Shown here in pieces: positions 7,650 through 59,048 of a stretch of 64,000 nucleotides of DNA. The position numbers and the translations under genes were made by a program. The notes below the pieces were generated by a model. It was not told where the DNA came from and searched no databases. It saw only the letters and a list, made by a program, of their open reading frames with translations. Numbering within the stretch: position 1 is the stretch's first letter; the number at the start of each line of letters is the position of its first letter. Source of the DNA: Mobula birostris (lineage: Eukaryota); the NCBI RefSeq assembly GCF_030028105.1, contig NC_092372.1, forward strand, positions 64,794,034 to 64,858,033, given 5' to 3'.

Positions 7650-7905
7650 TGCACACCAAAACGCACAAAACTTTGAAGGAACTCAGTAAGTCAGACAGCA
7701 TCTATGGAAGGGAATAAGCAGTCAACATTTTGGGTTGTGAGCCTTCATCAGGACTGAAAAGGAAGGGATCAGAAGCCAGGATCATAAGTCAGGATCATGT
7801 TGACCATTTATTTCCCTCCATAATTGCTGTCTGACTTGCTGAGTTCCTCCAGCATTTAGTGTGTGTTGCTCAAGATTTCCAGCACCTTCAGAATTTCTTG
7901 TATTT
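7650..7905. mobile_element. Penelope-derived fold-back element with decayed hammerhead (minus strand, 7719-7756)
   Basis: Inverted arms ~7661-7727 and ~7797-7866; reverse complement of 7719-7756 is cagtcCTGATGAaggctcacaacccAAAATgttgactg. Confidence 0.8.
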
Positions 7906-8129
7906 ATGGGTTCCATGCCAAGATCAGACTCCCATAACTTCAAGGCTCCACTGAAAATTTTAGAACAAATCACTTGTGGGTTCAAGATCTGCTCTAAGTA
8001 TCTAATAACAAAATATAGGCTAACGTTTCAGTTCAGCTCACTGATATTGGCTTATATTCTGTTTGGATAGCCTCAAACCTAATGGTATGAACATCGATTT
8101 CTCAAACATCTGATAATACCCCCCCCCTC

Positions 8130-8420
8130 CATTTGGAGAGCAAACTCATGTCCATTCAGCGGTCTACCCCTCCTCATGCAGCTGATGAATCCAAAGGAAC
8201 AGTGGAGACTAATACAAATTGGCACTAACCGTGTCGCAGGCGTTATTGGTTAGCATTGCACTCAATGTAGGACTGCCTTAGGGACTCCAGCTCCAGACCT
8301 TTCCTCGGAGTTTACTCCCAAAGCCTTCCCCATGAGTGGATATGGCAACAAAGCAGCGGATATTTGAGATCAGAGTTTTCCTTCTTGCCAACCATGGCGG
8401 ATAAGCCCTGTCTACCTGAT
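8130..8420 (-). mobile_element. Fragment of the non-coding repeat at 40845-41400 (probably RTE/BovB-related)
   Basis: Reverse-complement match to ~41040-41300 (gctgatgaatccaaaggaacag, tagggactccag, tttactc, ccatgagtgg). Confidence 0.7.
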
Positions 8421-8704
8421 CCTGTAATTAGGTTAGTGTTTAATAGGTGGCGTGCTGGGTGGTGCGGCACCTTGGGCGGGAAGGGCCTGTCCTACACTGT
8501 GTCTCTGAATAAAATAAACTCTTCTAGGTAGCAGCTGGATAGATGATAGATGAAGGAGAGTGACTGTCTCAGTGTAGGTATGAGGTGTAGAGTGTTTAAG
8601 TGTAAAGTGACAGTGCATAGGAGGAGTAAAGTGTGCTGAGGGGCTGCGGAGAGGAGTGATTGATGTGGATGTGGTGGTGGTGCTGATAATGCTGATTATT
8701 AAGG

Positions 8705-8990
8705 ATTCCACCCACTCTGCTTATGAACTGTTTGTCCCACTCCATTAGGTTAGAGGCTAGACAGCATCAATACAAGGACCAACAGAATCAAAAACAGTTA
8801 TTTTCCCCAAGTCAGTCTGATCAAATTCAATTCACTCCATCACCAGTACATACTGTACACATCAGTCACTCCTCTTCACAGCCCCTCAGCACCGTTCAAC
8901 CCACCCCCCATGAATTATCACTTTATACTTACGCTCCACACCTCATGCCTTCACTGACAGTCAATGTTCTACTGTGCTTTCATGTTGGAT
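8705..8990 (+). mobile_element. Old Rex1-type LINE 3' fragment
   Basis: cacccactc..ctgtttgtcccact..caaggaccaacagaatcaaaaacagttattttcccc corresponds to the HP..LF.PL....RTNRIKNSYFP motif. Confidence 0.5.
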
Positions 8991-10165
8991 GTGGAGGCCC
9001 TATCAGATTTATGCCTTTTGTCCTAATCATCCATTGATCACCCTCCTTGCATTCAAAATTAACATTTCCCTCTCTTTCCCAGTTCTGGCAATGGATCACC
9101 ACCAACCAGAATATATTTCTCCTTCTACTGATGTTGCCTTACTTGTTGAGTGTTCTCATGTCATAGAGAACCATAGAACCACACAACACAGAAACATGTT
9201 CTTCAACCCAAAATGTTCATAAACTTATTAATGCTAGACCCAAGTGAGACCATGGAAAGAATCTGGCCCAGGTGGAGGCCCCAAACACATCCTTACATCC
9301 TGCACAGATCAGCTGATGGGGGGGGGAGAGTGTATTTGCAGATATTTTTAAACTCTCCTTACTCTAATTTGAGGTTCTTACCTGCATTAAGAATATTATT
9401 ATCATTTTGATACCTCAGAAAAAAAATAAGGTAATGCACCTTAATGACTACCACCATGAAGTGCTTTGAAAGGTAGGTCTTGGTACACATGAACTCCAGC
9501 CTCCCAAACAACTTCAACTCCCTGCAACTCACCTATATTGAAAGCGTTCTACGTGGATTCCATCCTCTTGGATATACACTCGTTACAGGAGCACATGGAT
9601 AATAAGGGCACCTAAGTTGGACTATAGTTTATTGATTACAGCTCTGCGTTCAATATTACAATTCCAAGCAAACTCCTCTCCAAGCTCCTTGGCCTTCGAC
9701 TCAACATCTCCCTTTGCAACTGTATCATAGAACATAGAACAGTACAGCAATGGACAGGTCATTTGACACATGATGTTCCGTCAGTCTTGATGCCAATTTA
9801 GTCTAAATATCCTCCTCTATACCATCCATAACACTCCATTCCCTTCATATTCATGTGGCTATCTAAAGTCATCTAAACTTTACCAAACTGCCTTCTTCCA
9901 CAACTCCCCCTAGTAACCCATTCTAGGTTCCTACTACCCTCTGCATAATACAAAATATTTGCCCTCACATTGCCTTTAAACTCCCCCCCACCAACCATAA
10001 AAGAATACCTTCTGGTGTTTGGCATTTCAACACTGGGTTGAATATATGACTGTTCATCCTGTCTATCTTCCTCTTAATTTTAAAATCAGATCTCCCCGCA
10101 GCCTTAATGCTCTAGGGAGAACAACTTCAGTTTGTCAATCTTTCTTTATAGCTCTATCCTCTATT

Positions 10166-10851
10166 GAGAGGAGAAGATGGCGATGCGATGCAGCTCGCAG
10201 CGGCCACTCCGGTGGTGATGTCTTATTTGTCAAGTAGGGTGCCGTGCACAATCCTGATTTGATGGAGACGGATATGAGAGCACAGAGGAATATCTGGTGA
10301 AACTTCTGAAATGCCTGCTTCGCTACTGCTGCTACTGTGTGGTCCAGAATCTCCGGAGGGGAAGGCCCCAAATCCTTGGCTTTGCTTGTTGCTCGGCGGC
10401 CGGGGTGGGGTCGAAGCGCTCGGCAGAGGATGGTGCTCGGACAGGCTGTGTCGAAGGGCTGGTTGGAGACTCGAAGTTTTCAGACGGACTCAGAGTCCAC
10501 TGCGGTCGGGTGCTTCCAATGGTGCTGCATCAGCAAGTTTGCGGCGCTTGGAGGTTCATAGCTGGAAGAGTTCCTCTCTTCTGCCGCCTGCGTGAGACGA
10601 TGAGTCTATCGGGACTTTGAGACTTTTTTTTCCCGTGCCCATGGTCTGCTCTTTATCAAATTATGGTATTGCTTTGCACTGTTGTAACTATATGTTATAA
10701 TTATGTGGTTTTGTCAGTTTTAGTCTTGGTTTGTCCTGTGTTTCTTGTGATATCACTCTGGAGGAACATTATATCATTTTTTAAAGCATGCATTTCTAAA
10801 TGACAACAAATGAGGACTGAGTGTCCTCATAATCTAATCTAATCTAATCTA
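10166..10851 (+). mobile_element. Non-coding ~690-bp retroelement (AAGATGGCG head, 3' hairpin, (TAATC)n tail), copy 1
   Basis: 10-bp TSD atcctctatt at 10156-10165 and 10852-10861; hairpin atgaggac-tgagt-gtcctcat at 10810-10830; three further copies in the window. Confidence 0.9.
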
Positions 10852-11137
10852 ATCCTCTATTCCAGACACCCCAGTAAGCATCTCCTGAACCCTATCCAGT
10901 CGCCAGGGGCAATCAGAAACACACACAGTACTACAAGTATGGTCTGACTGCACTTTTATATAGCGACAGCCTGACTTCCTCAGTCTTACACTCATCATGC
11001 CAATTAAATCAGGCATTTTTTATGTTTTCTTTACTACCTTATCCATACATAGCCACTTTCAGTGAACTATGGACCTGAATCTCAAGATCCTTCTGTATAT
11101 CGGTGCTATTAAGGAGCCTATCATTAACTGTCAACTG

Positions 11138-11270
11138 AACACAAAAGATTCTACAGTTGCTGGAAATCTTGAGCAACACGCAAAATGCTGGAGAAACTCA
11201 GCAAGTCGGTCAGTATCTAGGGAGGGGAATAAATAGTTGACTTTCTGGGCTGAGATATTTAACAGTACTC
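11138..11270 (-). mobile_element. Single arm of the Penelope-derived fold-back family
   Basis: acacaaaagattctacagttgctggaaatcttgagcaacacgcaaaatgctggagaaactcagc matches the arms at 55165 and 58621. Confidence 0.75.
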
Positions 11271-12064
11271 ATATAAATGTATACTTTCTATTTTCATTTG
11301 ACCTCCCACAATGTAATACATCACACTTTACTGGATTAAACTCCATCTGCCACTGCACTGCCCATATCTTTAATTGATCTATATCTGTTGACTTCCTGAC
11401 TAACAGATCACAATCAGTGAGTTTCGGCAGCAACACTTCTACAATTACCCACATCACTGGTGCCCCATAAGATTGTGTCCTCAGTCCCCTACTCTACTCC
11501 ATATACACTCACTGCTGATAAATAGCCAGATTTTGCTCTAAATCCATGTACAAGTTTGCAGATGACTCGACCAAATCTCAAATAACAATGAATTACTGTA
11601 CAGGATTGAGATAGAGAGCTTAGTGGCATGGTGCCATGACAATTTTCCCTACAGTCCAGCACAACAAAGAGCTGATCATTGACATTAAGGAGGGGGACTA
11701 TACGCACTCCTGTTTATGTCACCATTGCCGAGCTTCAAGTTCCTAGGAGAGCACATCACCAATAGCCTGTCCTGATCTAACCATGTAGCCACCATGGTTA
11801 ACAAATTTCACCAGTGCCTCTACTTCTTCAGGAGGATGAAGAAATTTAACATGCACTCTTTGACTTCCACCATTTTTAATCAATACATCATAGTAAGCAC
11901 CCCATCTGGATGCATCATGTCTTGAATTGTGTGGAAGAAAATTAAAACAAAATTAAATTTTGTTGTCATGCTCAGCAAGACAAGTATTGCTCAAGACTTG
12001 GGTCATGAGGGTGACAGGATAAGATGCAGAAGCAGCCTTGCTAATGGGAGCTAAAAATGGCTAG

Positions 12065-12988
12065 CACTAGGTCATGCCAGTGAAGAGGTATTGTTAATCT
12101 TTGTCCAAGACTGTCTGGCTAATAGAGGAACTGACTGTAGACACGTAATTCTAATTTTATGTATCGCATGGGAACATTGGTAGACTTGCTGATACCTAAG
12201 AAGTGCTTCTTGAAGTTGCTGACGAAGTATGTGTGACTGTCGGATATTACCCAAAATTTACTGTATAAATTTAAGATGTAACCTGACATTGGTGGAGTCA
12301 TAAGACAATGGCTTCCTGTGGTCATTTATTAAAGGGTTAATCTTATACTGAGGTCTCTGTCTCAATTTCTGTTTGTAATTGCATAACAGAGCTGGTGCAT
12401 TGCAATAGTTCAACTGGGTTAAAAATGATTTGTTGATCATTTTTCTTTTTAGTCAATGTCTGAGCCTTCTTACTTAAGTGTCATCAGCCAGCTTTGATAG
12501 ATTTCAGTTGCCCTGATATCGTTTCTCCATGACCGCAATATTCTGGTGAATCCTTTCACCATGTTCATCACTGACAGTGCCAAGACTTGCAGAGATGTCT
12601 AAATAGGAATGCAGAAAATTAATCTTCAGTGAAACGTTGCACTTCATGGTTTTGTATGCTTGATGCATACAAATGATGTCAACCAATTGCACATAGTGCC
12701 AAGAAAATTTTCAACCACATCCTTGAATGCCTTCCATGCAGTTTACTCTGGTCCCAATAGAAGTTCTTCAAGTTGCCTGCCATTGATGACCCGTTTGATT
12801 TGTGGACCAACAAAAATGCCCTCGTTGATCTTGGCATCAATTATTCTGACTTGAATTATGAATTGAAATAACGAATATAGGTGATATAAAAATGATGGAA
12901 CTTTCATGGTGATTTCCATGATGAGCAGCACAAAATCCATAAGATACACCCTAAGGTATTCAGGATGCAAAATCTTTGTTGTCCAGTG
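12065..12988 (-). mobile_element. Internally deleted CMC/Chapaev3-like DNA transposon
   Basis: Transposase C-terminal motifs DAKINEGIFVGPQIK and CNVSLKINFLHSYLD..LGTVSDEHGERIHQNIAVMEKRYQGN; termini CACTAGG (12065) and CCAGTG (12988), flanked by tag and taa. Confidence 0.75.
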
Positions 12989-13287
12989 TAATCAATTGAT
13001 TGACTATGTTCTATTTTAACTCTTACCTAAATCTACGATAGTAGCCTTTCAGGTGCGGAACATTTGCAAGGTATCAGAAAACATGTTGGGAATTAAATTC
13101 AGTGAAAACTTCAACTCTGCTTCTGCTGCAAGTTCACAGGGCTACAGAACCTCTGAAAAACAATGTTATTTAGACAGTTTTTCTCAAATTCTCCACCTAT
13201 CCTTGAATGCCTGACCTCATAGTAATTACAGAACTTGGTATATTCACATGGTATATAATTTTCAAAAGGACGAAACAGGTTATTTTA

Positions 13288-13485
13288 TCATAAGACTATA
13301 AGACCAAGGAGCAGAATTAGGCCATTTGACCCATCGAATCTGCTCCGTCTTTCCATCATGGCTGATTTATTATTCCTTTCAACTCCATTTTAAGCCTTCT
13401 CCCCATAACCTTAAATATAGCCATTGACTTGGCCTGCACGACTGTCTGTGGCAATGAATTACACAGATTCACCATCCTTTGGCTC
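13288..13485 (-). mobile_element. CR1 LINE 3' tail
   Basis: cataagactataagacc..ggagcagaattaggccat..tctgctccg..catcatggctgat; reverse complement of the CR1 ends at 36450-36535 and 61460-61517. Confidence 0.8.
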
Positions 13486-20128: not shown

Positions 20129-20970
20129 GAGCTTAATGTGAAAAAAACTAAGGAGCTGGTGGTAGACCTGAGGAGAGCTAAGGTACCGGTGACCCCTGTT
20201 TCCATCCAGGGGGTCAGTGTGGACATGGTGGAGGATTACAAATACCTGGGGGTACGAATTGACAATAAACTGGACTGGTCTAAGAACACTGAGGCTGTCT
20301 ACAAGAAGGGTCAGAGCCGTCTCTATTTCTTGAAGAGACTGAGGTCCTTTAACATCTGCCGGACGATGCTGAGGATGTTCTGCGAGTCTGTGGTGGCCAG
20401 TGCTATTATGTTTGCTGTTGTGTGTTGGGGCAGCAGGCAGAGGGTGGCAAACACCAACAGAATCAACAAGCTCATTCGCAAGGCCAGTGATGTTGTGGGG
20501 ATGGAACTGGACTCTCTGATGGCGGTGTCTGAAAAGAGGATGCTGTCTAAGTTGCATGCCATCTTGGTCAATGTCTCCCATCCACTACATAATGTACTGG
20601 GTGGGCACAGGAGTACATTCAGCCAGAGACTCATTCCTCTGAGATGCAGCACAGAGCGTCATAGGAAGTCATTCCTACCTGTGGCCATCAAACTTTACAA
20701 CTCCTCCCTTGGAGGGTCAGACATCCTGAGCCGATAGGCTGGTCCTGGACTTATTTCATAATTTACTGACATAATTTAAATATTACTATTTAACTATTTA
20801 TTACTATTTTTCTATTACTATTCTATTACTATTTATTATCTCCATGACTATTACTATTTACTAATAGTAGTATTACTATTACTATTTCTATTACTATTTA
20901 TTATTTATGGTGCAACTGTAATGAAAACCAATTTCCCCTGGGATCAGTAAAGTATGACTGTGACTATGAC
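20129..20970 (+). mobile_element. 5'-truncated young Rex1/Babar LINE, same family as 5644-6589
   Basis: ORF 20138..20737 differs from the 5800..6585 product at about 18 of ~199 residues by my count; expanded (tattactatt)-like UTR; (tatgac)n tail. Confidence 0.92.
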
Positions 20971-26333: not shown

Positions 26334-26547
26334 NNNNNNNNNNNNNNNNNNNNNNNNNNNNNNNNNNNNNNNNNNNNNNNNNNNNNNNNNNNNNNNNNNN
26401 NNNNNNNNNNNNNNNNNNNNNNNNNNNNNNNNNNNNNNNNNNNNNNNNNNNNNNNNNNNNNNNNNNNNNNNNNNNNNNNNNNNNNNNNNNNNNNNNNNNN
26501 NNNNNNNNNNNNNNNNNNNNNNNNNNNNNNNNNNNNNNNNNNNNNNN
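26334..26547. other. Assembly gap (214 N)
   Basis: Run of n characters. Confidence 1.
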
Positions 26548-28089: not shown

Positions 28090-28722
28090 GGCGGGAGGAG
28101 AAGATAGCAGCGCGCCACGCACACGTAGCTCTCCAGTGAAAATGATATTGTATTTGTTAAATAGGGGCCGTGGACAATTCTGATTTGAAGGAGACAGACA
28201 TGAAAGCACAGAGGAATATCTGGAGAAACTTCTGAAACACCGGTTCGCTGCCGCTGTTACTGGGTGATCATGAATCTTCCGGAGGGAAGGCCCCAATATC
28301 CCCGGCTTTACCTGCTGCTGGTGACCGAGATTGAGGTCGAATTGTTCTGAGAGAGATGGCGCTCGGTACTGGGCGTCGGAGGGCTGATCGGAGGCTTGAA
28401 GTTTTCGGATGACTCAGAGTCGGACTGTGGTTGGGCATGGCAGGGAGAGTTTTCTTCCTTCTCCCCTCTGCTTGAGATGTGGGACATTCGAGAGACTTTG
28501 AACTTTTTATTGTGCCATGGACTGTTCTTCATCAAGTTATGGTATTGTTGCACTGTTGTAACTATATGTTATAATTATGTGGTTTTGTTAGTTTTTTCAG
28601 TCTTGGTCTGTCCTATGTTTTGTGATATCACACCGGGGGAATATTGTATCATTTCTTAATGCATGCATTACTAAATGACAATAAAAGAGGACTGCGTGTC
28701 CTCATAATCTAATCTAATCTAA
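28090..28722 (+). mobile_element. AAGATGGCG/(TAATC)n non-coding retroelement, copy 2
   Basis: Colinear with 10166-10851; ends gaggactgcgtgtcctcat(aatct)3. Confidence 0.9.
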
Positions 28723-29099
28723 TTTTAGGGAAAGGATCTATGTCCTTATAATCCTGTTTCAAATGTTAGATAATAACTGTATGTTGCAACTCCATTTATC
28801 CAGCTTTTCCCTGTATTTTTACTGCATTTGGTTAGCAAAAATCTCAGCTTTATTACCAACAATCAGCCGAGTATTATCTACTGTTTGCAAAAGGGAATTT
28901 CAAACTTCTATAACGCTCTGAACATGAAAACATTTTTTAAACGTTATTCCTGAAAGTTCAGGCCCTAACTTTCAGACAGTATTTCTGAGTCCTAAATTCC
29001 CCAGGAATGGTTTCTGTTTATCAATTTTTTTTGTTCATAATCTCTTCAGAGTTTCAATAAACCGTCCCGTAGTCCTTTAAATTCAATGGAACACAAATA

Positions 29100-29270
29100 T
29101 GGTCTGTGAAATGGAAACAGCTAAATCTACAGATACTGAAATTCTCTCACCCTCTCCATTTGCTCCCCTAATTTCAGGAAGGGTCTCTGAGGTAAAACGT
29201 TAATTGATTTATCTTTCCACAGATGAGGCTTGACTGGTTGAATTTTTCCAGCATACCTGTTTTCGTTTCT
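29100..29270. mobile_element. Strongly decayed Penelope-derived fold-back/tail remnant
   Basis: tctacagatactgaaatt..gaagggtctctgaggtaaaacgttaattg..ccacagatg..ttttccagcat. Confidence 0.45.
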
Positions 29271-32894: not shown

Positions 32895-33548
32895 CAGGAG
32901 GAGAAGATGGCGGCGTGACGGCAGCGCGCGCGGCCTCTCTGGTGAATGATATCTGTAATCTGTCAAGTAGGGGACCGTGCACAATTCTGATTTGATGGAG
33001 ACGGACGTGAGAATACGGAGGAACATCTGGAAAACTTCTGAAATGCCCACTTCGCTGCTGCTGCTACTGTGTGGAAACCAGACTCTCCAGAGCAGAAGGC
33101 CCCGAATCCTCGGCTTTGCTTGTTTCAGCAGCCGAGGAGAGGTCGAAGGCGCTCGGGAGGCTGTATCAGAGGGGCTGATCGGAGGCTCGAAGTTTTCGGA
33201 TGGATGGACTCAGTGTCGGCTGTTGTCGGCTGCTTCCAAGGCATCGGCAAGTTGACGGTGCCTGGAGGTTTATGGCAGGGAGTTTCTCCCTTTTGCCGCC
33301 TGCTATCGGGGACTCGGGAGTCAATCAACTCGGGGACTTTGAGACTTTTTTTTATCATGCCCGTAGCTCGTTCTTCATCAAATTATGGTATTGTTTTGCA
33401 CTGCTGTAACTATATGTTATAGCTATGTGGTTCTGTCAGTGTTAGTCTTTGGTTTGTCCTGTTTTCTGGAGAAACATTGTATCATTTCTTAATGCATGTA
33501 TGCATTTCTAAATGACAATAAAAGAGGACTGAGTGTTCTCATAATCTA
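32895..33548 (+). mobile_element. AAGATGGCG/(TAATC)n non-coding retroelement, copy 3
   Basis: Colinear with copies 1 and 2; probable TSD aagtgtg at 32882-32888 and 33552-33558. Confidence 0.9.
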
Positions 33549-33928
33549 AAAAAGTGTGTTGAAGCTAACAAAATGGTATGCCATTAGCTGGTGTGCTGAG
33601 ATTAACACCTGAAATCAGGCAACAAGAAATCAAGATATGACCACCGTAAAACTGTCAGGGTTGTCAAAAAAGTAATACCAGTCCAGAATTGAGTCCAAGA
33701 CCAGCCATCATTTGTGGTATGATTACACGTTGTAACAGGTTAAAAGACAAAGTCAGGCAGTGCTGTTGACAACAGCACTTGACTCCTGATGAGTATAATG
33801 CCTTCTGTGCACACGTTGAACTGAAGGGGATTGGAATGTCACCACCCACCCAGGCAGCCTCCAATGTACCTGAATTCACAGTCACTATTGCAGATGTAAG
33901 GTCAGTCTACTGGAGAGTGAACCTGCAA

Positions 33929-39239: not shown

Positions 39240-39560
39240 ATCATCTCTCTCTCTCACCCTTTCTCCTCTTTTCTCCTGCCTGTCGCCTCCCTTTGTTGCT
39301 CCTCATCTCTTTCTCCCATGGTTCAATGTCCTCTCCTATCAGATTCCTTTTTCTTTAGCCCTTGAACTCTTTGACCTATCACCTGCCAGCTTCTTACTTC
39401 ATCCCCTCTTCTCCTTCATCTACTTTCACAAGCCACCTGCTGGCTTGTACATTCCCCCCTCCCCCATCTTCTTACTCTGGTTTCTGCCCCTTCCTTTTCA
39501 GTCCTGATAATTAGTATTGGTCCAAAACATTGACTGTTTATACTCCTCCAGAGAGGTTGC
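39240..39560 (+). mobile_element. Penelope-like 3' UTR with decayed hammerhead (39499-39536)
   Basis: Pyrimidine-rich UTR like 4100-4330 and 50830-51120; cagtcCTGATAAttagtattggtccAAAACattgactg keeps the cagtc/gactg stem I. Confidence 0.75.
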
Positions 39561-40844
39561 CTCCAGGAGGTTGTGATGCTTCGAATACAGAATTCAGTTT
39601 GCTATCAGTTAACTCAGAGGTAATTCATCTAAATACAGAGGTAGTTCAACCCCATCCATATTGAATATAAACAAATGTAGCAGAGAAATCTTTAAATGTT
39701 TAAGAGTATTGTTTAGTCCATAGCTTAGTAATGTTACCTCTAAATTTGAGCACCACAATGCTTTTTTACTAGCCATCCTGCCTTCACTTGTTATGAGTTT
39801 AAGCCCTTCAAAACTAGTTGCCTTTAAATAATCATGCATAAAATTGTGATTACCCATCATGCCTCTCACTGGCAACCATGCCTCAGATTAAAATGCTGAC
39901 ACTTCTTTTTAAATATTATCTTGTCTTTGATTCTCTCAACCTCTTCAGGAATTCACTGTACTTCACTTTCCCCTGACCCTTCTGGATTGTATAAAATCTT
40001 TCATGTATGCTCTACAACCTAAAGAGGTCTCCTTGAGTTCCTCCTTAAATCCTTCCATTATTCTCTCTTAGTGTGAAGGGAATTTTACACTGTAAGTTTT
40101 CCAATTCACCTACTTTAAAATAATTTTATGTCTATATTCCCAATAAATAAATAACTAAAAGGGCTGACACCAAGAATTTATTGACCTGTGCCTTTAATGT
40201 ATGCCAGGAAAAGTGCGAATTGGAAAACTGCTCCCAATCTCAATAACTGAATAAATTAAACAAAGTAGAAATTATAACTAAGAAAATCTTCAGTCTTATA
40301 GTTGTAATAGTTCAATTAACCTTTGATATGTTTTATCTAAATATCCTTCTCTGTTTGCTATCAATTGCTCTTTAGTGTTTTTTTTATCTTATACATTATG
40401 ATTGCAAGCCTGGTTCATATCTTTTCATTCAGCTGTTATAACTAATTTGTATGATCATTATTCCTTTCATAATCATATTAATGCAATAAATGAATAATAT
40501 TTTTGCACCATTCTAATTTAAGTAATTGTGAGCACTATGATTAAGATTTCAAACTATATGCTGTAGTTCGAGCCGTGTTATCCAAAAGAAATGATGTCAT
40601 AAGTTCAATATCCTTGGACTAGTACAGTTGCCCTGATGCAACAGCTGTACTTAATAAGTGTATAAATAATCTTCATCATTAATTTTTTCTTGTTCTCTTA
40701 AGCAACTAAAAATACTATGAATTGATTTGTTTATGTATTTCATCACCTGAAACATATATAAAACAACCCAATTTCAGTATCTGTTCTTGAAGCTGTAATG
40801 GTGGAGGAGGTTCCTTAATGTTGTTATAGCCAAGCATGGTAATG

Positions 40845-44931: not shown

Positions 44932-45620
44932 AGATTAGATTAGATTAGATTAGATTATGAGGACACGCAGTCCTCTTTTATTGTCATTTAGTAATGTATG
45001 CATTAAGAAATGATAAAATGTTCCTCCAGAATGATATCACAGAAACACAAGACAAACAAGACTGAAAAACTGACAAAGACCACATAATTATAACATATAG
45101 TTACAACAGTGCAATGCAATACCGTAATTTGATAAGAACAGACCATGGGCATGGTAAGAAAAAGTCTCAAAGTCTCTCGAAAGTCCCATCATCTCACGCA
45201 GATGGAGAAGGAAAAAAAACTCTCCCTGCCATGAGCTTACAGCGCTGCAAACTTGCCGATGCAGCATCTTGGAAGCACCCGACCACAGCCGACTCTTGAG
45301 TCCGTCCAAAAACTTTGAGCCTCCGACCAGCCCTCCGACACCGAGCACCGAGCACCATCTCTGCTGAGCGCTTCGACCCTGGCCCCAGCAACAGGCAATA
45401 GGCAAAGCCGAGGATTTGGGGCCTACCCCTCTGGAGATTCTCGATCGCACAGTAGCAGCGGCAGCAAAGTGGGTATTTCAGAAGTTTCTCCAGATGTTCC
45501 TCCGTGCTTCTCACGCCTGTCTCCATCAAATCAGGATTGTGTATGGCATCCTACTTACAAATACGATATCATTTCGGAGCGGCCGTGTGCGCTGTGTTGC
45601 GTCACCATCTTCTTCTCCCC
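44932..45620 (-). mobile_element. AAGATGGCG/(TAATC)n non-coding retroelement, copy 4
   Basis: (agatt)5 followed by atgaggacacgcagtcctc; ends ccatcttcttctcc; reverse complement of copies 1-3. Confidence 0.9.
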
Positions 45621-49305: not shown

Positions 49306-50390
49306 CCATCCACTCCCCTCAGAAACGTGCATCGGGGGAGTGGAGCCCCCAGTCTGTGTGGCTTGCCTGGGTGGCCAGCCTCGCCCGCATGGTGCGGGTA
49401 CCCTCACTGGTTGCTCAATGTCCAAGCGCGCCAGTTTGAGACGGTCCACTGTAAAAGTCTCTTCCCGGCCACCCACCTCCACGACACACGTGGTTCCATT
49501 ATGCCGGATCACCTTGAAGGGTCCCTCGTACGGCCGCTGTAGAGGTGACCTGTGCATGCCCCTGCGAATAAAAACATACTCACAGTCTCGGAGGTCTTTA
49601 GGGGTGAAGGATGGTGTGGGACCATGCCTGGAGGTCGGGACCGGTGCCAGGGTCCCTACCTTGTCCCGCAGCCTCGTTAGCACCGTTGCTGGAGTTTCTT
49701 CCGAACCTTGGGCCTCTGGTACGAACTCGCCTGGGACCGTCAGGGAGGTGCCGTAGACCAGTTCCGCCAAGGAGGTGTCCAGGTCCTCCTTGGGGGCTGT
49801 GCGGATGCCCAGTAGGACCCAGGGAAGCTCATCTGTCCAGTTGGGGATGCTGAGGCGCGCCATCAGGGCCGACGAGATGCCGGTGAAATCGCTCCACCAA
49901 ACCATTGGACTGGGGATGGTATGCTGTGGTGTGATGCAGCTGGGTGCCCAGGAGCTGCGCCAGTGCTGTCCACAAACCAGATGTGAACTGCTCCCCTCTG
50001 TCGGAGGTGACGTCCGTTGGGAGGTCGAACCTGGTGATCCAGTTTGCAATGAGCGTCCTGTCACAGGACTCAGTGGATGTGTCTGCAAGCAGTACGGCTT
50101 CCGACCATCTGGTGAACCTGTCTACCATGTTAAAGGTATACCTGGCAGGGGGCCGATGATGTCCATGTGGATGTATTGGAACCTCCTGTGCATCGGCTGG
50201 AACTGCTGGAGGGGAGCCTTCATGTGCTGCTGGGCTTTGGCGGTCTGGCAGTGTACACAGGTCCTGGCCCAGTGTTCGACCTGTTTGCACAAATCGTGCC
50301 AGATGAATCTGTCCACTACCAGCTTGATGGACACCCGGATGGATGGGTGGGCCAGGTCCTGCAGCGTGTCGAACACCCGGCGCTTCCATG
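49306..50390 (-). pseudogene. Ty3/Gypsy integrase (frameshifted, 5' truncated)
   Basis: Zinc-binding AHPSIR..WARTCVHCQTAK; core MVDRFTRWSEA..TSDRGEQFTS..TTAYHPQSNGLVERFHR; C-terminal LQRPYEGPFKVI (GPF), spread over three frames. Confidence 0.92.
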
Positions 50391-51130
50391 CAGATTGCTC
50401 CTTCTGTAATTCCCTTGCCTATTCACCCTTCCCCACTCATCTCCCTGCTGGCGCTTATCCCTGCATGTGAAAGAAGTGCATTAACCTCCTCCCTCACCTC
50501 CATTCAGGGCACCAAACAGTACTTAATGGTGAGACAACCTGTAAACTTTGTTCAGGTCAAATTCTGTATCCAATGCTCCTGATGTGGCCTCCTCTATATT
50601 GGTGAGACCCGACATAGATTGTGGGACCACACCTTCGCTCTATCCACATAAAGCAGGATTTCCCAGTGGCCAACCACTTTAATTTCAATCCTCATTCCCA
50701 TTCCAACATGTCAGTCCATCGACTCCACTGCTGCCATGACGTGCCACTCTTAGTTTGGAGGAGCAACACCTCATATTCCACTTGATTAGACTACAACCTG
50801 ATAGCATGAACAACAATTTCTACAACTTCTGGTAATTTTTCCCCCTTCCCATTCACTTTTCTTCAACTTCCCACTCTGACCCCATTCTTACCTCTTCTCG
50901 TCTCCTCTCCTGCTATCACCTTCCCCTGGTGCTCCTCCTCCATTCCTTTATCTGATGGTCCACTCTCCTGTACTATCAGATTCCTTCTTTTCCAGCCCTT
51001 TACTTATTCCACCTATCACCTCTCAGCTTCTCACTTCATTCTTCCCGTCCACCAACCCGGATTCTCCTTCTAGCTTGTTCCCCTTCCATTCCGCCCACCT
51101 TTGTATTCTGGCTTCTTCCCCTGATGAAGG
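50390..51130 (+). mobile_element. Penelope-like element 3' fragment (GIY-YIG domain and UTR, ending in the hammerhead half CTGATGAAGG)
   Basis: FCIQCS*CGLLYIGETRHRL; HFNFNPHSHSNM; LEEQHLIF; homologous to 3840-4422. Confidence 0.85.
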
Positions 51131-51134
51131 ATGT

Positions 51135-51640: not shown

Positions 51641-52419
51641 CAGGCGTAGGATCCTGCATTCTGTACTGTAGAATGATATGACCCAATGACATAAAGTGAT
51701 AGTGGGAATGCTGCCTGATTGACATATGTCAGGAAACCCACAATACCCGGCAATGGTGCCAACTCCTTGTTGAAGAAAAATACAAAGCTGTTTCAGGGAT
51801 TTCACACAGTGAACCAAATGGCAAACCCCTACAATGTGCCTGCTTTCAAACACATTCATTCAATAAATGAACAGTAAGCAAACAAATTCCTTTGGAATAA
51901 TAGAGCATTACACAATCACTAGATATGCATTCCACTGGTATGGTTACGTTTGACTGATTTGAACGATGAATACAAATGTAAAAGCATTAAAGCATATTAA
52001 CAGTGCAGCAGAATGGATTATTCACTCTTGCCCTTAGCTTTGCAATTGCCTGCTTATTATGCTCTGTCTGCTTGCAGCCAGAGTGTTGGGTGGACTGCAG
52101 GTGACCACAAATGGTGACGGTGAAGCAGCTCTGGCTCTGGCGGTGTTCACTGGTGACTGAGGAAACTATCTTCTAGGGTAACAAGTCATGGAGCACAAGC
52201 ATGAACTCTGATTGAGAACCAGTCGGTAAAAAAAGGATGCTGGCATCCTAAGTGATCACTGAAGCCCTCCCATGCCTGTGGAATGCTCTTGGGATTGGAC
52301 AGGCTATATGGTCTAGCAGCTTGATCTGCCATCCACCTCCAACTTGGAACCACTTCCCCATAATCAAGAACTTTCAAAAATATTATCTACTTCATCATTA
52401 AATGTTGCAAGTTTAGTTA

Positions 52420-52744
52420 GTTAAAGATAAAGAAAAGCTCTATTTGTCATGTGTACATCAAAACACAATATGAAATCTATGACAAATACAGCCTGTGGAT
52501 TGGGCTGGTGGCAGCCTGCTGGTGTTGCCACCCTTCCAGCGCCAACATGGCATGCCACAACTCACTAACCCTGACACTAACTCTTTGGAATGTGGGAGGA
52601 AACCAGAGCGCCCAGATGGAACACAAACAGTCACGAGGAGAACATGTAGACTCCTTACAGACAGAGACAGAAATTAAATCCCTCTCAGTGACTGACAGTG
52701 CTGTAAAACGATTGTATTAACCTGGTACACTGCCATGCTGCCCT
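52420..52744 (-). mobile_element. V-type tRNA-derived SINE
   Basis: Core tctttggaatgtgggaggaaaccagagcgccc..cagtcacgaggagaacatgtagactccttacagac; ends ..catgctgcccc. Confidence 0.75.
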
Positions 52745-53471
52745 TTATTAATGTCACATCTGTCTAGACTGATAATTGTTAAAGTAACAACTCATCCAAG
52801 TTGAGCATTAGACCAGAATCATCAAAGTGATAAGAATACGATCTCTGTTTTACAAGGCCTTGCAGTGGTATTGAGGCTTAGAGGAGGTAAGCCCTTAAGG
52901 GCTGGAACCATGACATCAATTAGCATGAGAAGAGCTCAGTAGGTGCATGATAATGGTTGGTACCTGAGCATTTAAAAGTTAAAAGCACATTCAAGACAGG
53001 CTTAGAATTTTCATTCTGATCAACAGCAAATACCCCATTTCTACAGTAACTTTACTGTGTAGATAATCTGTGTAGCATGAAGATTTACAGGTTAATCAGG
53101 GTGCTGTTTTGGAGAAGTCCAGTTCTTTGAAAAATCTGTTAAGAGTGTTGTTAGTATACCAAAGGAAGAAATTTTGCTTCTGTTCAATAATATGGACAGC
53201 ATATTGTTGGCTGATCCAAAGGCAATCATTGGATTACAATATTTGAATGGAAACAAGTGCTGAAATTGCAGACATACACTGTAAATCTGGGAAGTACTGA
53301 GTAATTGTCATGGTCCGGTCCGTGAAGTCCGCATTCCGGTTCAAGCTCCAGTCCATCGATCCGTATTCCAAGTTTTCCATTGTCCTGTTGTGTGCCTTAA
53401 TTGAGACACATGATTCTCATTTTGGGCTGGCTATTAAATAGCTCTTGGGTTCAGCTTTATTTGCCGGACTG

Positions 53472-53640
53472 TCCCCTTCCCCCCTCCCCCCTCCCCCTTC
53501 CCCCTTCCCCCTCCCCTTTCCCCCCTTTCCCCCCTCCCCTTACCCCTCCCCTTCCCCTTCTCCCTCTCCCTCCCCTTCCCCCTCTCCCTCTCCATCCCCT
53601 TCCCCCTTCCCTCCCCCACTCCCTCCCCTTTCCCCTTCCA
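53472..53640. repeat. C/T-rich low-complexity tract ((cccctt/ccctct)n)
   Basis: About 170 nt almost purely pyrimidine. Confidence 0.95.
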
Positions 53641-54069
53641 TCGGAAGCCTTTCCCTGAAGCCTTTGCCTGCAACGTCACCTGCGTCTTCGCCTGTATCGC
53701 TGTCAAGTTCTACCGCCAGAGCAAGCCTTGCTGTGTCTAGATAAGAAATTGTCTATCGTTGTTTGGAACTGTCTCTGTGTCCACGCCTTCGGTAGGTAGG
53801 TCTGGCCATTTGCCGCTACCTTGTGTTGGGAAACATCTCGTCGTGTTCAGCATTCTGTGTATGAGTCCCGGCTCTACATCCTGTTCCCAAGGAGTTGTCC
53901 CGGCTCTGTGCCTGTGTATGATTCCTGGCCCTACGTCCTGCACCCAAGGAGGGGTCCAGGCTCTGTGTTCCATGTTCCTGTCGCTCAAGTTCAAGGCTCC
54001 GTGTTCCCATGCTCTCGACCAAGGCTCTGAGTGTCCAGTCCTCGTCCAAGGCTCCAAGGTTCCTGTCTC

Positions 54070-54202
54070 CCAGGACCACAGCTCTGTGTTCCACTGCTGC
54101 CAAGACCACAGCTCTGTGTTCTGGTGCTCCCAAGACCAAATCTCTGTATTCTGGTGCTGCCAAGACCAAGTCTCTGAGTTCCTGTTCTCCCAAGACCAAG
54201 TC
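54070..54202. repeat. 30-bp minisatellite x4.4 inside the solo LTR
   Basis: ccaagaccacagctctgtgttctggtgctc-like units at 54070, 54100, 54130, 54160 and 54190. Confidence 0.9.
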
Positions 54203-55164
54203 AAGGCCCTGTGTTCTCACCCAGCCCAGGAGTACCTCGTCCTGCCCAGGAAAGCCTTTAAAAGTCCAAGGCTCGTCCAGTCCTGTAGCCACGCCTCGAA
54301 GAACTCAAGTCATGCCCAGTCCTATTGCCACGTTATGTCCTCGCCTAGTTCCGAGGTCCAAGGCCGAGTCAAGTCCTGGGTTCTGGGTCCTTGTCCAGTC
54401 TCTGGCTGGGAGTCCTAGCCCAGGCTCTGTATCCTGGTCTCATCCAAGGCCTGTGTCAATGTCCAGTATCATTTCTTCCCCACTTCCCTTGCTTTCTTGA
54501 CACTCCAAGTCTTGTTCCTAGTACTTCAGTGTCTGCGTCTTGCATTTGGGTCCTCTCCCAATGCCCCCCTTATGACAGGAATAGATATTTCCCACCTGTT
54601 GCAACAGTCCATTGCTGGACTCCATATGAATTCCATCTGAATCTATTTCTGGGATTCATTTACATTAATGGTGAATAACCACTGAGGTCGTGCACTAAGT
54701 CAGAACCAGCACTGGGATTGGATTGCTTCCGTTTTAATAACATTTTACATATGCAACTTTGAAGATAATAGAAAAGGTAAATTAAATTTTTATTTGCTTA
54801 TTCGAACGTTTTATTCCAAAATGGTTTTGTATTTTGAATTTACTTTTTTAATATAAATTTGTATACATTTTTTATAGTTATTAAAATAGTTTTTATAGTT
54901 TTATAGTTTTATAGTTCTTGGAGTGGGAGCTCTGCAGCTCAGGCATAGTTACCACTGTTACATCACCTTGATGATTGCTGATGATCTTCAAGACCAGCCG
55001 CCTGAATCTGGCCCCAGACAGTTCAGGTGAGCAGGCTAAGATGTGGGTAGGGGTTCTCTGTGCTGAGCCAGATCTAGCACAATCCAGCTTGAGCATTACC
55101 AGAAAATGAAGGCAAGGTCTGGTTTCAACATTATCCAAAGGAGAAGAAATATGCAGACAAGCAT

Positions 55165-55368
55165 AAACACAGGAGATTCTGCGGAAGCTAGAACTCCAGA
55201 GCTGCACACACAGAATGCTGGAGGAATTCAACAGCATCTATTGAAATCAATAAACAGTTGATGTTTCATGCTAAGTCCTGATGAAGGGCCTCAGCCCGAA
55301 ACGTTGACTGTTTATTCATTTCCATAGATGCTGCCTGACGTGCTGAGTTCCTTCAACATTTTGTGTGT
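55165..55368. mobile_element. Penelope-derived fold-back element
   Basis: Arms acacacagaatgctggaggaattca..gcatctattgaaatcaataaacagttgatgtttc and gaaacgttgactgtttattcatttccatagatgc..tgagttccttcaacattttgtgtgt. Confidence 0.85.
55274..55309 (+). ncRNA. Minimal type I hammerhead ribozyme motif
   Basis: AGTC-CTGATGA-A-GGGC(CTCA)GCCC-GAA-ACGT-T-GACT: stem I AGTC/GACT, intact core, 4-bp stem II, loopless palindromic stem III, GUU cleavage triplet. Confidence 0.8.
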
Positions 55369-56489
55369 CATGTTCTAAGGTAAGCATGTAGCATCTATAG
55401 CAAATGATGAAAATATTTTGTTTGGTGTGTTTGTCCTTTTCAAATAAACTTATTTAAGTGTTGTAATGCAAAATCTTGATTCCATTAACACAAACTAGAT
55501 AGGAAATCAGCATGGCTGCTACATCACACCACCACTGATCCATTTTCTAATAACAACAGATAGACTTTCCTTCAGAATTCTTTAGGAGTTCTTATAATGC
55601 TGATTCAATTTTCTTTATCCTGCTAAAGCATTGCAATTGCTAAGCCAATGCAATGAATTTTACTCAGATGCATAAGATAGTTGTTGACCTATGCAGATGA
55701 TGATTCATAGATACTGCATTCCAAATTAAAATGATTGCAACGGTCGGAAATCTTCTGATTTATTAGAAATGATCTTGAAAAAAAATTGATTTCAATAAAT
55801 GCATGTAGAAAAATATCACTACTTCTCCTTCATCCATCATGAACTCAGCCTCCAAATACTTCAGAATCGGTTCTTTTTATATAAAGGTATATTTTGATTC
55901 CTGAGGCTTTCTCGGTCTCGCCGACTTAAGCAACACATCTTCTGTTGCCTGGCAACAATACCTAATTTTGCTAAGGGGAAACTGCATACTTGTTCTATTA
56001 ATATGTTCATGGCTCAATTCCAATTAAAGATTACTATTATGTTTTCTGTGACCTTACAATTTGTGCTTACTTGAGTCATTCCTTAAAAAAAGACTACTGA
56101 GTACACAAGCCAATAGTGAACCTTAAGCACAAAATATCACTGATCACGTAATAACATCATAGGAAGAGTGTCATTACTGACGTCATTTATACCAAATCAG
56201 TAAGTAAACTCTACAGAATACACATGGTACAAAAATGAAACTGAATGTTAATACAGATCGACAGACTAATATAGTAGGTACTAACTTGGGAGAACGGGTT
56301 AAAATCTATGCTTCATAATATGAAAAAAATATACTTTTCTGTGATATTATGCCAACTAAAAAACTCCTTTGATTAAAATGAACCGAGTTTCCTCCTCAGA
56401 TTTGACCTCTCAATTAACTACTTTGAAAATTAGTATCTTTCCCTGGGATCAAGAATATCGTACAGGATGCGATGTTATTATAACAACAA

Positions 56490-57180
56490 CTGTGCATTCA
56501 ACAACAATTAGACCACGGAATTGACAGAGGACTTCAGGAAAGGGAAGCTGGGCAAACACATACCAGTTCTCATTGAGGGGTCGACAGTGGAAAGGATGAG
56601 AAGCTTCAAGTTCCTGGGTATCAACATCTCAGAGAATCAGTTATTATCCTGATAGATCCCAGAGGATCTATCCTGAGCCAAACAAATTGATGCTGTCATG
56701 AAGAAGTTATGCTGGTGGCTATACTTCAGTCAGAGTTTGGGAGATTTGATATGTCACCAAGGACTCTAGCAAATTTCTAGAAATGTATTGTGGAAAGCAT
56801 CTTGACTGGATTCATCACTACCACTTATGGATGCTCCAACGCCAGGACTGTAAGAGACTGAAGAGGGTCATGGGCTCAGTCAGATTCATCATGAACACAA
56901 GCATCCCCATCAACGAGGACATCATCAGAAGGCAGTGCATCAAAAAGGCCGCATCCATCATTAAGGATGTTCACCATCCAGGACATTGTCTCTTCTCATT
57001 ATTAACATGGAGGAGCTTAAAAACACACACTCTATTTTATGAACAGCTTTTCCCTCTCTGCCATCAGATTTCCGAATGGTCCATGAATCCACAAATGCTA
57101 CCTCACTATTCCACATTTATATTATTTACTTATTTATTATAGTAGATTAATAGTAATTTTTTTTGTCTTGCACTATATTG
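56490..57180 (+). mobile_element. Old Rex1/Babar LINE 3' part (tail resumes at ~57972-57995)
   Basis: SFKFLGINISE..; CIKKAASIIKDVHHPGHCLFSLL in ORF 56783..57142. Confidence 0.8.
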
Positions 57181-57307
57181 CATGCTTTCCATCCGTGCTG
57201 GGTTGAGCATCAAGCTAGCAACTTGGCCTCACTAAAAACAGCTAAGTGCTAAAGATAAAGCAAGGTTTCCGTCCAATGCGCCACAAGGCGTGGAAAGGAA
57301 CAACAAC
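57180..57307 (+). mobile_element. 5'-truncated SINE, same family as 14985-15174
   Basis: gttgagcat..gctagcaacttggcctc..ccaatgcgccacaaggcgtggaaagg(aac)3. Confidence 0.7.
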
Positions 57308-57315
57308 TGTGTCTA

Positions 57316-57972
57316 GAGTCAATACTGCATTTATAGCGAGAGGATTTGAGTACAGGAGCAGGGAGGTACTACTGCAGTTGTACATGGCCTTGGTGAGACC
57401 ACACCTGGAGTATTGTGTACAGTTTTGGTCCCCTAATCTGAGGAAAGGCATCCTTGCCATAGAGGGAGTACAAAGAAGGTTCACCAGATTGATTCCTGGG
57501 ACGGCAGGACTTTCATATGAAGAAAGACTGGATGAACTGGGCCTGTACTCGTTGGAATTTAGAAGATTGAGGGGGGATCTGATTGAAACGTATAAAATCC
57601 TAAAGGGATTGGACAGGCTAGATGCAGGAAGATTGTTCCCGATGTTGGGGAAGTCCAGAACAAGGGGTCACAGTTTGAGGATAAAGGGGAAGCCTTTTAG
57701 GACCGAGATTAGGAAAAACTTCTTCACACAGAGAGTGGTGAATCTGTGGAATTCTCTGCCACAGGAAACAGTTGAGGCCAGTTCATTGGCTATATTTAAG
57801 AGGGAGTTAGATATGGCCCTTGTGGCTACGGGGATCAGGGGGTATGGAGGGAAGGCTGAGGCGGGATTCTGAGTTGGATGATCAGCCATGATCATAATAA
57901 ATGGCGGTGCAGGCTCAAAGGGCTGAATGGCCTACTCCTGCACCTATTTTCTATGTTTTCTATGTTTCTATG
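57316..57972 (+). mobile_element. Young 5'-truncated CR1 (open ORF2 C-terminus)
   Basis: ORF 57246..57872 LLQLYMALVRPHLEYCVQFWSP..RRLRGDLIETYKI..RTRGHSL..FFTQRVVNLWNSLP; (ttctatgt)n tail. Confidence 0.93.
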
Positions 57973-57994
57973 TAAAACAAAGCTCATGACATTT

Positions 57995-58095
57995 GCAACA
58001 CACACAGAATGCTGGAGGAACTCAGCAAGTCAGGCAGCATCTATAGAAATGAATAGGCAGTCAAAGTTTTGAACTAAGACTGTTTATCAGGACGT
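57995..58095 (-). mobile_element. Single arm of the Penelope-derived fold-back family with decayed hammerhead
   Basis: acacacagaatgctggaggaactcagcaagtcaggcagcatctat..cagtcaaagttttg..ttatcaggac. Confidence 0.75.
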
Positions 58096-58370
58096 GATGA
58101 CCCATTGCACCTGCAAGTTAATTTTTTGTGATTCATGCACAAGCACTGTCAAGTCTCTCTGCACAGCAGCATGTTGCTGCAATCTTGCACCATTTAAAGT
58201 GGATGGCCTTGCACTTGCCAATGTTGTGTTCCATCAGCCAGAGCCTTTCCCACTTACTTAGTCCATCGATATCACTCTGAAAACTGTATAATTTGCTTTT
58301 CACTCAAGACAGTGAATTTAGCAGACTTAGATATGTTACACTCAGTCCCCTCATCCAAATTTTCAATATA

Positions 58371-59048
58371 CCTCCAGTGGCCACTTACTAGGTTAGATGT
58401 GTTTCTCTTCTGAACACCGCTGTCGTAAAGCAGACCACTGTTAATTGAGTTACTGTTGCCTTTCTGTCAGCTTGAACCTGTCTAGCTATTCTCCTCTAAC
58501 CTCCCTCATTAACAAGGTGTTTTTGCCCACAGAACTCCCATTCACTGGATGTTATTTTGTTTTTCGCACTGTTCTCTGAAAACTCTAGAGACTGTTATGT
58601 GTGAAAACCCCAGGAGATCATAAACAAGAAAATAACTACAGATGCTGGAAATCTGAACAACACACACAAAGTGCTGGAGGAGCTCAGCAGGCCAGGCAGC
58701 ATCAATGGAAAAATGTACAGCTGATGTTGAAATGTCGGCTGTGCTTTTTTCCATAGCTGCTGCCTGGCCTGTTGACTTCCTCCAGCATATTGTACGTGTT
58801 ACCTCAGGAGATCAGCAGTTTCTGAGATAACTCAAACTATCCCATCTGTCACCAGTAATCATTCCACAGTCAAAATTACTGAGATCACATTTCTTCCCCA
58901 TTCTGATGTCTGGTCCAAACAACAACTGAATTTCTTCACCATGTCTGCATGCTTTTATGCACTGAGTTGCTGCCACATGATTAGCTGATAAGATGTTTGC
59001 ATTAACGAGCAGGTTTACAGGTGTACCTAATAAAGTAGCCACTGGGTG
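58371..59048 (-). mobile_element. Internally deleted Tc1 transposon
   Basis: Imperfect TIRs cctccagtggccacttactaggt and acctaataaagtagccactgggtg; transposase N-terminus MGKKCDLSNFDCGMI.. then DLLGFSHITVSRVFREQCEKQ, split by an insertion. Confidence 0.85.
58621..58804. mobile_element. Penelope-derived fold-back element inserted in Tc1
   Basis: Near-perfect hairpin centred at ~58728; 10-bp TSD caggagatca at 58611-58620 and 58805-58814. Confidence 0.9.

Follow-up and report, generated by a model that had tools for sequence, protein, structure and literature searches.

Head-to-head stubs of a Penelope-like element in a ray genome, each probably formed at its own insertion

Three palindromes in the analysed window (the whole stretch of DNA examined, 64 kb) each consist of two short terminus copies of a Neptune/Nematis-type Penelope-like element (PLE), set head to head. 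They were found at 7657-7905, 55162/5-55368 and 58621-58804, with arm complementarity of 79%, about 75% and 82%, respectively. Each is likely the product of its own insertion event; the probable route is reverse transcription of RNA left uncut by the ribozyme, with each of the two cut DNA ends acting as a primer in its own right, a mechanism drawn from five inverted copies readable in full, all in the window. The PLE family makes up 4.6% of the window and occupies 12 loci, which are given below with the intact ribozyme and the target-site duplication (TSD).

3813..4421, + strand: 5'-truncated PLE with the C-terminal part of GIY-YIG, pyrimidine-rich 3' UTR, decayed ribozyme and short end
7657..7905, both strands: head-to-head PLE stub, left arm antisense, right arm sense
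8051..8124, + strand: small piece from the end of the PLE ORF (E 0.002-0.004), 146 bp to the right of the preceding palindrome
9072..9151, + strand: weak, strongly decayed arm, absent from the preliminary description of this DNA
11138..11269, - strand: single arm with long tail, start about -31, uncertain (decayed)
29111..29262, both strands: decayed inverted copy in which the antisense part is just tail (29111-29145), joined to a sense arm
39252..39562, + strand: PLE 3' UTR with decayed ribozyme, stopping at about +31
50384..51133, + strand: PLE fragment with linker zinc-finger remnant, frameshifted GIY-YIG and UTR, ending inside ribozyme stem II
55162..55368, both strands: head-to-head PLE stub, left arm antisense, right arm sense
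55274..55310, + strand: minimal type I hammerhead, the sole intact one in the window (regex scan and folding)
57995..58093, - strand: single arm with short end, start -30
58611..58620, + strand: left-hand TSD repeat flanking the 58621 stub, exact over 10 bp
58621..58804, both strands: head-to-head PLE stub, arms meeting at the GAAAC box
58805..58814, + strand: right-hand TSD repeat flanking the 58621 stub, exact over 10 bp
63795..63868, both strands: decayed inverted copy, antisense tail plus short sense piece, junction ambiguous

Arm positions were numbered from the predicted ribozyme cut after 55305, and junctions were read by eye from alignments. In each palindrome one arm is long (ending at about +103) and the other short (about +63 to +68). 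The antisense left arm of the 7657 stub has the short 3' end, extends into the UTR to about -55 and carries a mutated core G12; its sense right arm starts at about -4 and has the long tail, and a 13-bp tandem duplication (7766-7798) lies within the junction. In the 55165 stub, the antisense left arm has a long tail and a 9-bp deletion and reaches -15 (loop II); the sense right arm runs from -31 to a short end, and the two overlap by 2 nt (AG, 55274-55275). The arms of the 58621 stub start at -5 (long-tailed) and -7 (short). The 58621 junction sits on a near-palindrome centred on the CG before GAAA. The three palindromes, which the preliminary description had placed at 7650, 55165 and 58621, were thus recovered, as was the meeting of the 58621 arms at the GAAAC core box.

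Two further loci, previously taken for single arms at 29100 and about 63790, turned out to be decayed inverted copies. The antisense piece of the 29111 copy starts at about +73 and its sense arm upstream of the ribozyme core; the antisense tail-like piece of the 63795 copy starts at +45 or +75. The nhmmer profile was built from ten of the window's own arms, and the E values of these ten (1e-24 to 1e-39) are inflated because the profile was built from them. Copies outside the profile gave E values of 2.7e-5 (29178, sense arm), 0.003 (9072) and 0.01 (63824, sense piece); the tail pieces alone were weak (E 6 at the 29111 copy and E 5 at the 63795 copy). The single arms reported at 11138 and 57995 are indeed single. 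They are of the same size as the palindrome arms and fall within a graded series of 5' truncations in the window. No hidden inverted arms were found beside the longer fragments in the eight stretches searched.

The predicted source is an endonuclease-bearing (EN+) PLE of Neptune/Nematis type, a label that takes two clades together. Within the window, the terminus runs on without a break from UTR and GIY-YIG sequence, which bears out the Penelope origin proposed for the arms: the arm sequence does form the tail of the GIY-YIG fragment at 3813-4421 and of the UTR fragment at 39252-39562, and the GIY-YIG fragment said to be cut short near 51130 stops inside the ribozyme. A GIY-YIG domain with CxxC between GIY and YIG and a downstream His is present, the window fragments aligning to proteins P0001 and P0002 (tblastn E 2e-35 for 3813-4421 against P0001). 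Against Pfam GIY-YIG, P0001 and P0002 gave E values of 5e-4 and 2e-3, under the gathering score, and the six window frames alone gave no GIY-YIG match. The CX2-5CxxC zinc finger of the RT-EN linker, a feature of EN+ PLEs (PMC8557442), was found in both homologs and as a frameshifted remnant near 50460-50480. The telomerase-related RT that precedes the endonuclease in such elements is absent from the window's fragments, and the homologs cover only YIDD and the later part. A minimal hammerhead lies in the terminus (intact at 55274-55310, decayed in other arms), and the five inverted copies, each with one end at about +103, have the layout of an inverted 5'-truncated copy with a one-sided tail. 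In contigs of run X1, what most often lies upstream of 55274 is PLE UTR (2,211 contigs, agreement 0.47). The claim of high copy number also held, with tens of thousands of matching contigs per run. Exact-pattern scans returned no match in metagenome contigs, prokaryote genomes or viral contigs.

The intact hammerhead, which confirms the suggested ribozyme in the Penelope terminus, has stem I AGTC/GACT, the CUGAUGA box, an extra A, a 4-bp stem II, GAAA, and a loopless palindromic stem III (ACGU). The 5' edge of stem I comes after a pyrimidine tract and AG, which is splice-acceptor-like. Folding predicts this core to be shut (16 kcal/mol). It is the only intact core among the six palindrome arms, the ribozyme being dead or missing in the other five; the 58621 stub lacks the CUGAUGA box and therefore has no ribozyme. 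An Rfam search of the window gave no hammerhead match. Three miRNA-family matches and one snoRNA match from Rfam, all far below gathering scores, were rejected as hairpin or chance matches.

The 10-bp TSD of the 58621 stub extends to 14 bp with one mismatch when counted from 58607, and none of 500 random pairs scored as high. No TSD was found for the 7657 stub, and the candidate at the 55165 stub was not significant (p 0.12). A TSD was clear in one of the ten copies tested; the others are about 15-30% diverged from each other.

The junctions differ among all three palindromes. The two arms within one palindrome appear to share subfamily marks: the true pairing of arms ranks first of 15 possible pairings, both in shared states (15, next 13) and in mean identity (0.804, next 0.792), a rank that corresponds to p of about 0.07 and to which the 55165 pair adds only one shared state. 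A 2-nt-shorter form is common to both 58621 arms and the ORF-bearing copy at 4330. Public contigs from four runs (56,000-67,000 contigs per DNA-like run) contain no dominant junction form. Of 184 joint forms, the best 15 were carried by 1-8 contigs per run each, in a comparison that is insensitive (252 of 61,690 X1 contigs fit two places) and whose joints often fall at alignment breaks. Joints at 55233/55234, 55274 and 55319-55321 do not count here as junction positions, since they fall on a reference deletion, the reference arm edge and a subfamily-variable stretch, respectively. With the ORF-to-tail copy as reference, no strand change occurred among the best 15 of 292 joints, all 15 being skips. 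Summed X1 contig depth, not taken as copy number, was about 2,200 at 55273 (about half of that carrying ordinary-arm letters) against about 509,000 at 55278-85. Seven of 32 listed pieces (X1 2, X5 3, X13 2) cross the 55165 junction by 21-27 letters with 11-18 differences. Junctions resembling it are therefore present at a few other loci.

Based on these observations, a sequence of events can be proposed. The GIY-YIG domain would make a staggered cut (10-14 bp); one DNA end would prime at the distal start site and the other at a point some 37-40 nt closer. After early termination of both cDNAs, repair would fuse them head to head, in some cases through a short overlap, and the resulting insert would be dead on arrival and would then decay. 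The ribozyme would be carried along passively in the terminus, its helices at most favouring the sites where copying stops. In vitro work on a lizard Poseidon PLE has shown that both strands are cut and extended and that two RT start sites bound the tail (PMC11167929). In the 7657, 55165 and 29111 copies each arm has something that its partner does not: upstream sequence is missing from the long-tailed arm, and the tail from the arm that extends further upstream. Since neither encompasses its partner, simple copying of one arm into the other does not account for them. In all five inverted copies the start of the long-tailed arm coincides with that of its partner or lies downstream of it (by only 2 nt at 58621, and ambiguously at 63795). 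A long tail on the more truncated arm would fit separate priming from both cut DNA ends. Joining of templates, which the preliminary description had entertained as a cause of the inversion, was rightly named as a possibility.

It is unlikely that the arms arose by self-priming, in which one nascent copy would fold back on a short palindrome, for instance that centred on the CG before GAAA, and serve as its own template. The 58621 junction does lie on that near-palindrome, palindromes at inverted junctions have been interpreted as self-priming (PMC3846280), and marks shared between arms are compatible with it as well. The arms of the 7657, 55165 and 29111 copies, however, each hold sequence absent from the partner, so that one cDNA would need a further template jump; self-priming on antisense RNA escapes this argument. 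Quite improbable is a collapse, in which a full inverted-pLTR/pLTR-ORF-pLTR insertion lost its middle by recombination between direct pLTRs and left the palindrome in the original TSD. Repeats of about 100 bp are short for recombination, which counts against such a loss, as does the graded truncation series, which includes single arms of the same size. The layout of Pen2a_Av, with solo pLTRs attributed to recombination or deletion, would nevertheless yield this product (PMC3846280).

The two readings of the preliminary description fared worse. Its proposal that ribozyme self-cleavage creates the RNA ends where arms begin or invert is very improbable: five of six palindrome arm starts do lie in or beside the ribozyme, but none of the arms has its start at +1 or its end at the cut, and the 11 arms that clearly extend that far all continue across it. 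In the lizard Poseidon element, which belongs to another clade, hammerhead mutants did not alter insertion in vitro, and RNA-seq showed no read ends at the cleavage position (PMC11167929). The slightest probability attaches to the palindrome as a MITE- or retrozyme-like element that lacks autonomy but is transcribed and multiplied as one unit. In its favour are the three palindromes of comparable size within 64 kb, one with its own TSD, together with the few contigs whose junction is like that at 55165 and a go-back joint of 95 nt (tandem arms), seen in 4, 2 and 1 contigs. Against it stand the differing junctions, the pairing of arms by subfamily within each copy, the lack of a dominant joint in the contigs, and the absence of tandem ribozyme units among the 22 tandem-repeat rows of the window. 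Copies are not alike in structure and junction, as MITE copies are; nor does the window contain the head-to-tail tandem units with at least two complete hammerheads that mark a retrozyme, its only intact core being that at 55274-55310. The proposed ribozyme dependence likewise finds no support, with five of six arms dead or missing the core and the sixth predicted shut.

What stands of the inversion point in or beside the ribozyme is that five of the six palindrome arm starts fall within it or at most 5 nt away; the left arm at 7657, at about -55, does not. This enrichment is weak and hinges on the range of starts allowed: if starts are confined to -60..+20, where so small a palindrome would catch the eye, p = 0.22; with -100..+30 it is 0.028, and with -200..+30 it is 0.002. 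Arm starts form two clusters (-31, -31, -30 and -7, -5, -4; simulated p 0.017, the clusters having been picked post hoc). A more tentative extension of double priming, which we consider doubtful, is that the stubs are a very large natural record of PLE integration with fixed polarity: two cut ends, two RNA priming sites, a distal-primed (long-tailed) arm that is always the more truncated, and copying that stops preferentially at the ribozyme borders (stem I 5' edge and GAAAC box). If so, insertions would be shaped without self-cleavage, by the fold of the uncut ribozyme or by a splicing event immediately upstream of it. The value of the stubs is mainly mechanistic, as junction statistics of so abundant a family could decide between double priming, fold-back and collapse. 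Such hairpins can also be mistaken for MITEs, microRNA precursors or ribozyme elements.

Among the literature matches listed, a scope outside which subscription journals fell, no ray or shark PLE palindromes and no PLE twin priming were found. Minimal hammerheads of metazoan PLEs, as described in PMC4209133, share with the 55274-55310 motif a short helix I, an extra nucleotide before stem II, G10.1-C11.1 and a palindromic, loopless helix III. That paper also describes pairs of hammerhead motifs on opposite strands, separated by 100-700 bp, as well as numerous solitary motifs derived from truncated PLEs, and in the parts consulted names no chondrichthyan; by comparison, stem II here has 4 bp and one motif in the window is intact. 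Like non-LTR retrozymes (PMC7229834; bioRxiv 10.64898/2026.07.22.740005), which were found in the one chondrichthyan genome surveyed (bioRxiv 10.64898/2026.07.22.740005), the stubs are non-coding, related to PLE pLTRs, hammerhead-bearing and of similar size. A retrozyme is made up of tandem units arranged head to tail, each with its own ribozyme, whereas the stubs are head-to-head, dispersed and mostly without a working core. With MITEs (PMC8969392) they share shortness, lack of an ORF, terminal inverted sequence and many copies; unlike MITEs, they have arms with unequal ends that are retroelement termini, and junction and length vary between copies. The closest likeness is to PLE insertions themselves, in which an inverted 5'-truncated copy and a one-sided 30-40 bp tail have been observed (PMC8557442), as in Pen2a_Av with its inverted pLTR, 31-bp tail and 9-bp TSD (PMC3846280). 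The head-to-head arrangement, the tail at one end, the single TSD (58621 stub) and the short junction overlaps are common to both. In contrast to those insertions, the main copy here is reduced to the terminus, giving an ORF-less insert of 180-250 bp, and the tail lies on the more truncated arm in the five inverted copies (63795 ambiguous). The stubs belong to a ray lineage within an established class of retrotransposons and have the insertion layout published for that class.

Three palindromes made of head-to-head copies of the Penelope-like element (PLE) terminus, named here by their starts (7650, 55165 and 58621), are present in the window as the preliminary description had reported, with ~75-82% complementarity between arms. 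The shared terminal sequence (100-140 bp) also occurs, as described there, in single arms and at the ends of longer fragments. Two loci previously taken for single arms (29111 and 63795) are instead decayed inverted copies; their tail pieces are weak alone (E 5-6) and were recognised by alignment. The family totals 12 loci and 2,918 bp, or 4.6% of the 64-kb window.

Copies of the PLE terminus and the ribozyme in the window
7657-7905, palindrome with inverted arms
55162/5-55368, palindrome with inverted arms
58621-58804, palindrome with inverted arms
29111-29262, decayed inverted copy, antisense tail abutting sense arm
63795-63868, decayed inverted copy, antisense tail abutting sense arm
11138-11269, single arm
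57995-58093, single arm
3813-4421, longer fragment ending in the shared terminus
39252-39562, longer fragment ending in the shared terminus
50384-51133, fragment stopping within the ribozyme
55274-55310, minimal type I hammerhead in the right arm of the 55165 copy (core-pattern scan)

An additional, strongly decayed arm (9072-9151, E 0.003) possibly represents an older subfamily, like the 29111 copy. Other repeats include a young 687-nt repeat in two opposite-orientation copies (5721-6407 and 20130-20816, 94% complementary) and a ~600-bp repeat in four copies (10238-10854, 28164-28723, 32971-33560 and 44933-45508), two of which end in 5-bp microsatellite tails. Degenerate 30/60-bp and 57-bp tandem arrays (53855-54216) adjoin a C/T-rich tract (53472-53636), and an assembly gap of 214 N lies at 26334-26547.

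In the long fragments, the coding sequence is that of the end of a GIY-YIG endonuclease. Of three candidates in a search with the stop-free frame 3864-4091, two proteins were returned, both from rays (72 and 68% identity). Both have the YIDD region of a reverse transcriptase as well as a CX4CX2C linker; their GIY-YIG domain contains CxxC and scores below the Pfam gathering threshold. Aligned back to the window, they match 3813-4259, 50384-50808 and 8051-8110. Directly upstream of the fragment at 50384, a frameshifted minus-strand stretch (50000-50330) reads like what we take to be a Gypsy-type integrase. The linker finger, by the definition given in PMC8557442 a mark of Neptune/Nematis-type PLEs, marks the element as a putative member of this type, an assignment by definition.

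Arm starts were read from alignments by eye and counted from the predicted hammerhead cut after 55305. They lie at ~-55 and -4 (7650 copy), -31 and -15 (55165), -7 and -5 (58621), upstream of -22 and at ~+73 (29111), and, ambiguously, at -10 or +8 and +75 or +45 (63795). The proposal that the inversion point falls in or beside the ribozyme holds for five of the six arms originally considered, and for five or six of ten once the decayed copies are included. The chance of five in six is 0.22, 0.028 or 0.002 for an allowed range of 81, 131 or 231 nt, as scored on alignment columns with the left arm of 55165 cut at 55265; the first range is the fairest, because only small palindromes had been picked. 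Starts form two small clusters, at the stem I 5' edge (-31, -31, -30) and at the GAAAC box (-7, -5, -4), with a simulated p of 0.017 for a pattern chosen post hoc. The stem I edge is the start of three arms (55274-55276, 58093 and 11269), and a pyrimidine tract plus AG, resembling a splice acceptor, directly precedes these points. In Drosophila virilis Penelope, an intron is described as ending at helix I (PMC4209133).

Self-cleavage by the ribozyme is not what determines the ends, contrary to what had been suggested. A cleaved template should yield arms starting at +1; none was found among the window copies, and all 11 arms clearly reaching the cut site run through it, as the ambiguous 63825 piece may. 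According to PMC11167929, hammerhead mutations leave insertion in vitro unaltered and unprocessed RNA is the main insertion substrate. The core is intact in one of six palindrome arms. The core pattern has six matches in the window, of which only 55274-55310 falls within a family copy; an Rfam scan of the window did not detect it. As in the hammerheads of PMC4209133, its helix I is short, its stem II is preceded by an extra base, and its helix III is palindromic and loopless. Forcing the ribozyme fold carries a predicted penalty of 16.2 kcal/mol within the 55165 palindrome (-94.1 vs -77.9) and 6.5 kcal/mol in the arm alone. In sequencing contigs over 55297-55306, the core varies family-wide at CpG (C>T or G>A in ~9-28% of depth), which fits methylation-driven decay.

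Both arms of a palindrome are alike in subfamily marks. The true pairing ranks first among the 15 pairings of six arms (p ~0.07), with 15 shared states (next 13) and an identity of 0.804 (next 0.792), the 55165 pair supplying one state only. A target-site duplication (TSD) flanks the 58621 copy (10 bp exact, 14 bp with one mismatch; matched by none of 500 random pairs), and none was found in nine other copies. On 55150-55385, 61,690, 67,388, 55,745 and 2,959 public contigs from four runs were placed at 80% likeness. The 55165 locus itself was found without differences in run X1, which may derive from the same source as the window, and a counterpart with three differences and two gaps in run X5, from another organism; these matches extend 27-28 letters beyond the junction, just below the 31-letter rule, and support a genuine junction short of formal proof. 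Summed contig depth there is <1% of that immediately to its right, and the element's UTR is the commonest sequence continuing upstream of the ribozyme. As to whether junctions are shared or unique, joint detection was insensitive, and counts cover the best 15 of 184 joint forms, with 1-8 contigs per run; these exclude one dominant junction and yield no distribution, since most forms lie outside those listed. A similar junction is nevertheless crossed by 21-27 letters in seven of 32 listed contig pieces, and a go-back joint (tandem arms) occurs in 4, 2 and 1 contigs; both count against a fully random picture. On reference 4000-4430, which includes the ORF end and UTR (50,271 and 58,891 contigs placed), none of the best 15 of 292 joints changes strand.

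One end is long (~+103) in every inverted copy; in the four where the opposite end is intact, it is a short one, which for the three main copies lies at ~+63 to +68. The intervening 37-40 nt match the PLE tail, mapped in PMC11167929 between two reverse transcriptase start sites; there, both DNA strands are cut and extended during insertion. In none of the five copies does the long-tailed arm start upstream of its partner (58621 marginal, 63795 ambiguous). The rival explanation of self-priming, as proposed in PMC3846280, finds its best fit among the junctions in that of 58621; in three copies, however, each arm holds sequence absent from its partner, which a single cDNA copied back on itself cannot explain and two separate primings can. 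Collapse of a longer insertion is a further rival. We favour priming from both cut ends, with the containment argument as its one test: each cut DNA end would prime separately, both copies would stop early, and repair would join them head-to-head.

The palindromes are a real feature of a known PLE kind, and the modest question remaining concerns the polarity and stop sites of inverted copies. Outside subscription journals, no literature on ray PLE palindromes or PLE twin priming was found. The retrozyme/MITE-like unit proposed earlier is not borne out: the definition of a retrozyme requires complete ribozymes in units arranged head-to-tail (PMC7229834; bioRxiv 10.64898/2026.07.22.740005), whereas the window holds no such array, no one junction dominates among the best joint forms in the contigs, and each copy's own arms pair best. 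Inverted 5'-truncated copies and one-sided tails are described as regular PLE features (PMC8557442, PMC8969392) and have been shown with TSDs (PMC3846280), and PMC4209133 had already noted that minimal hammerheads can occur in pairs on opposite strands, 100-700 bp from each other.
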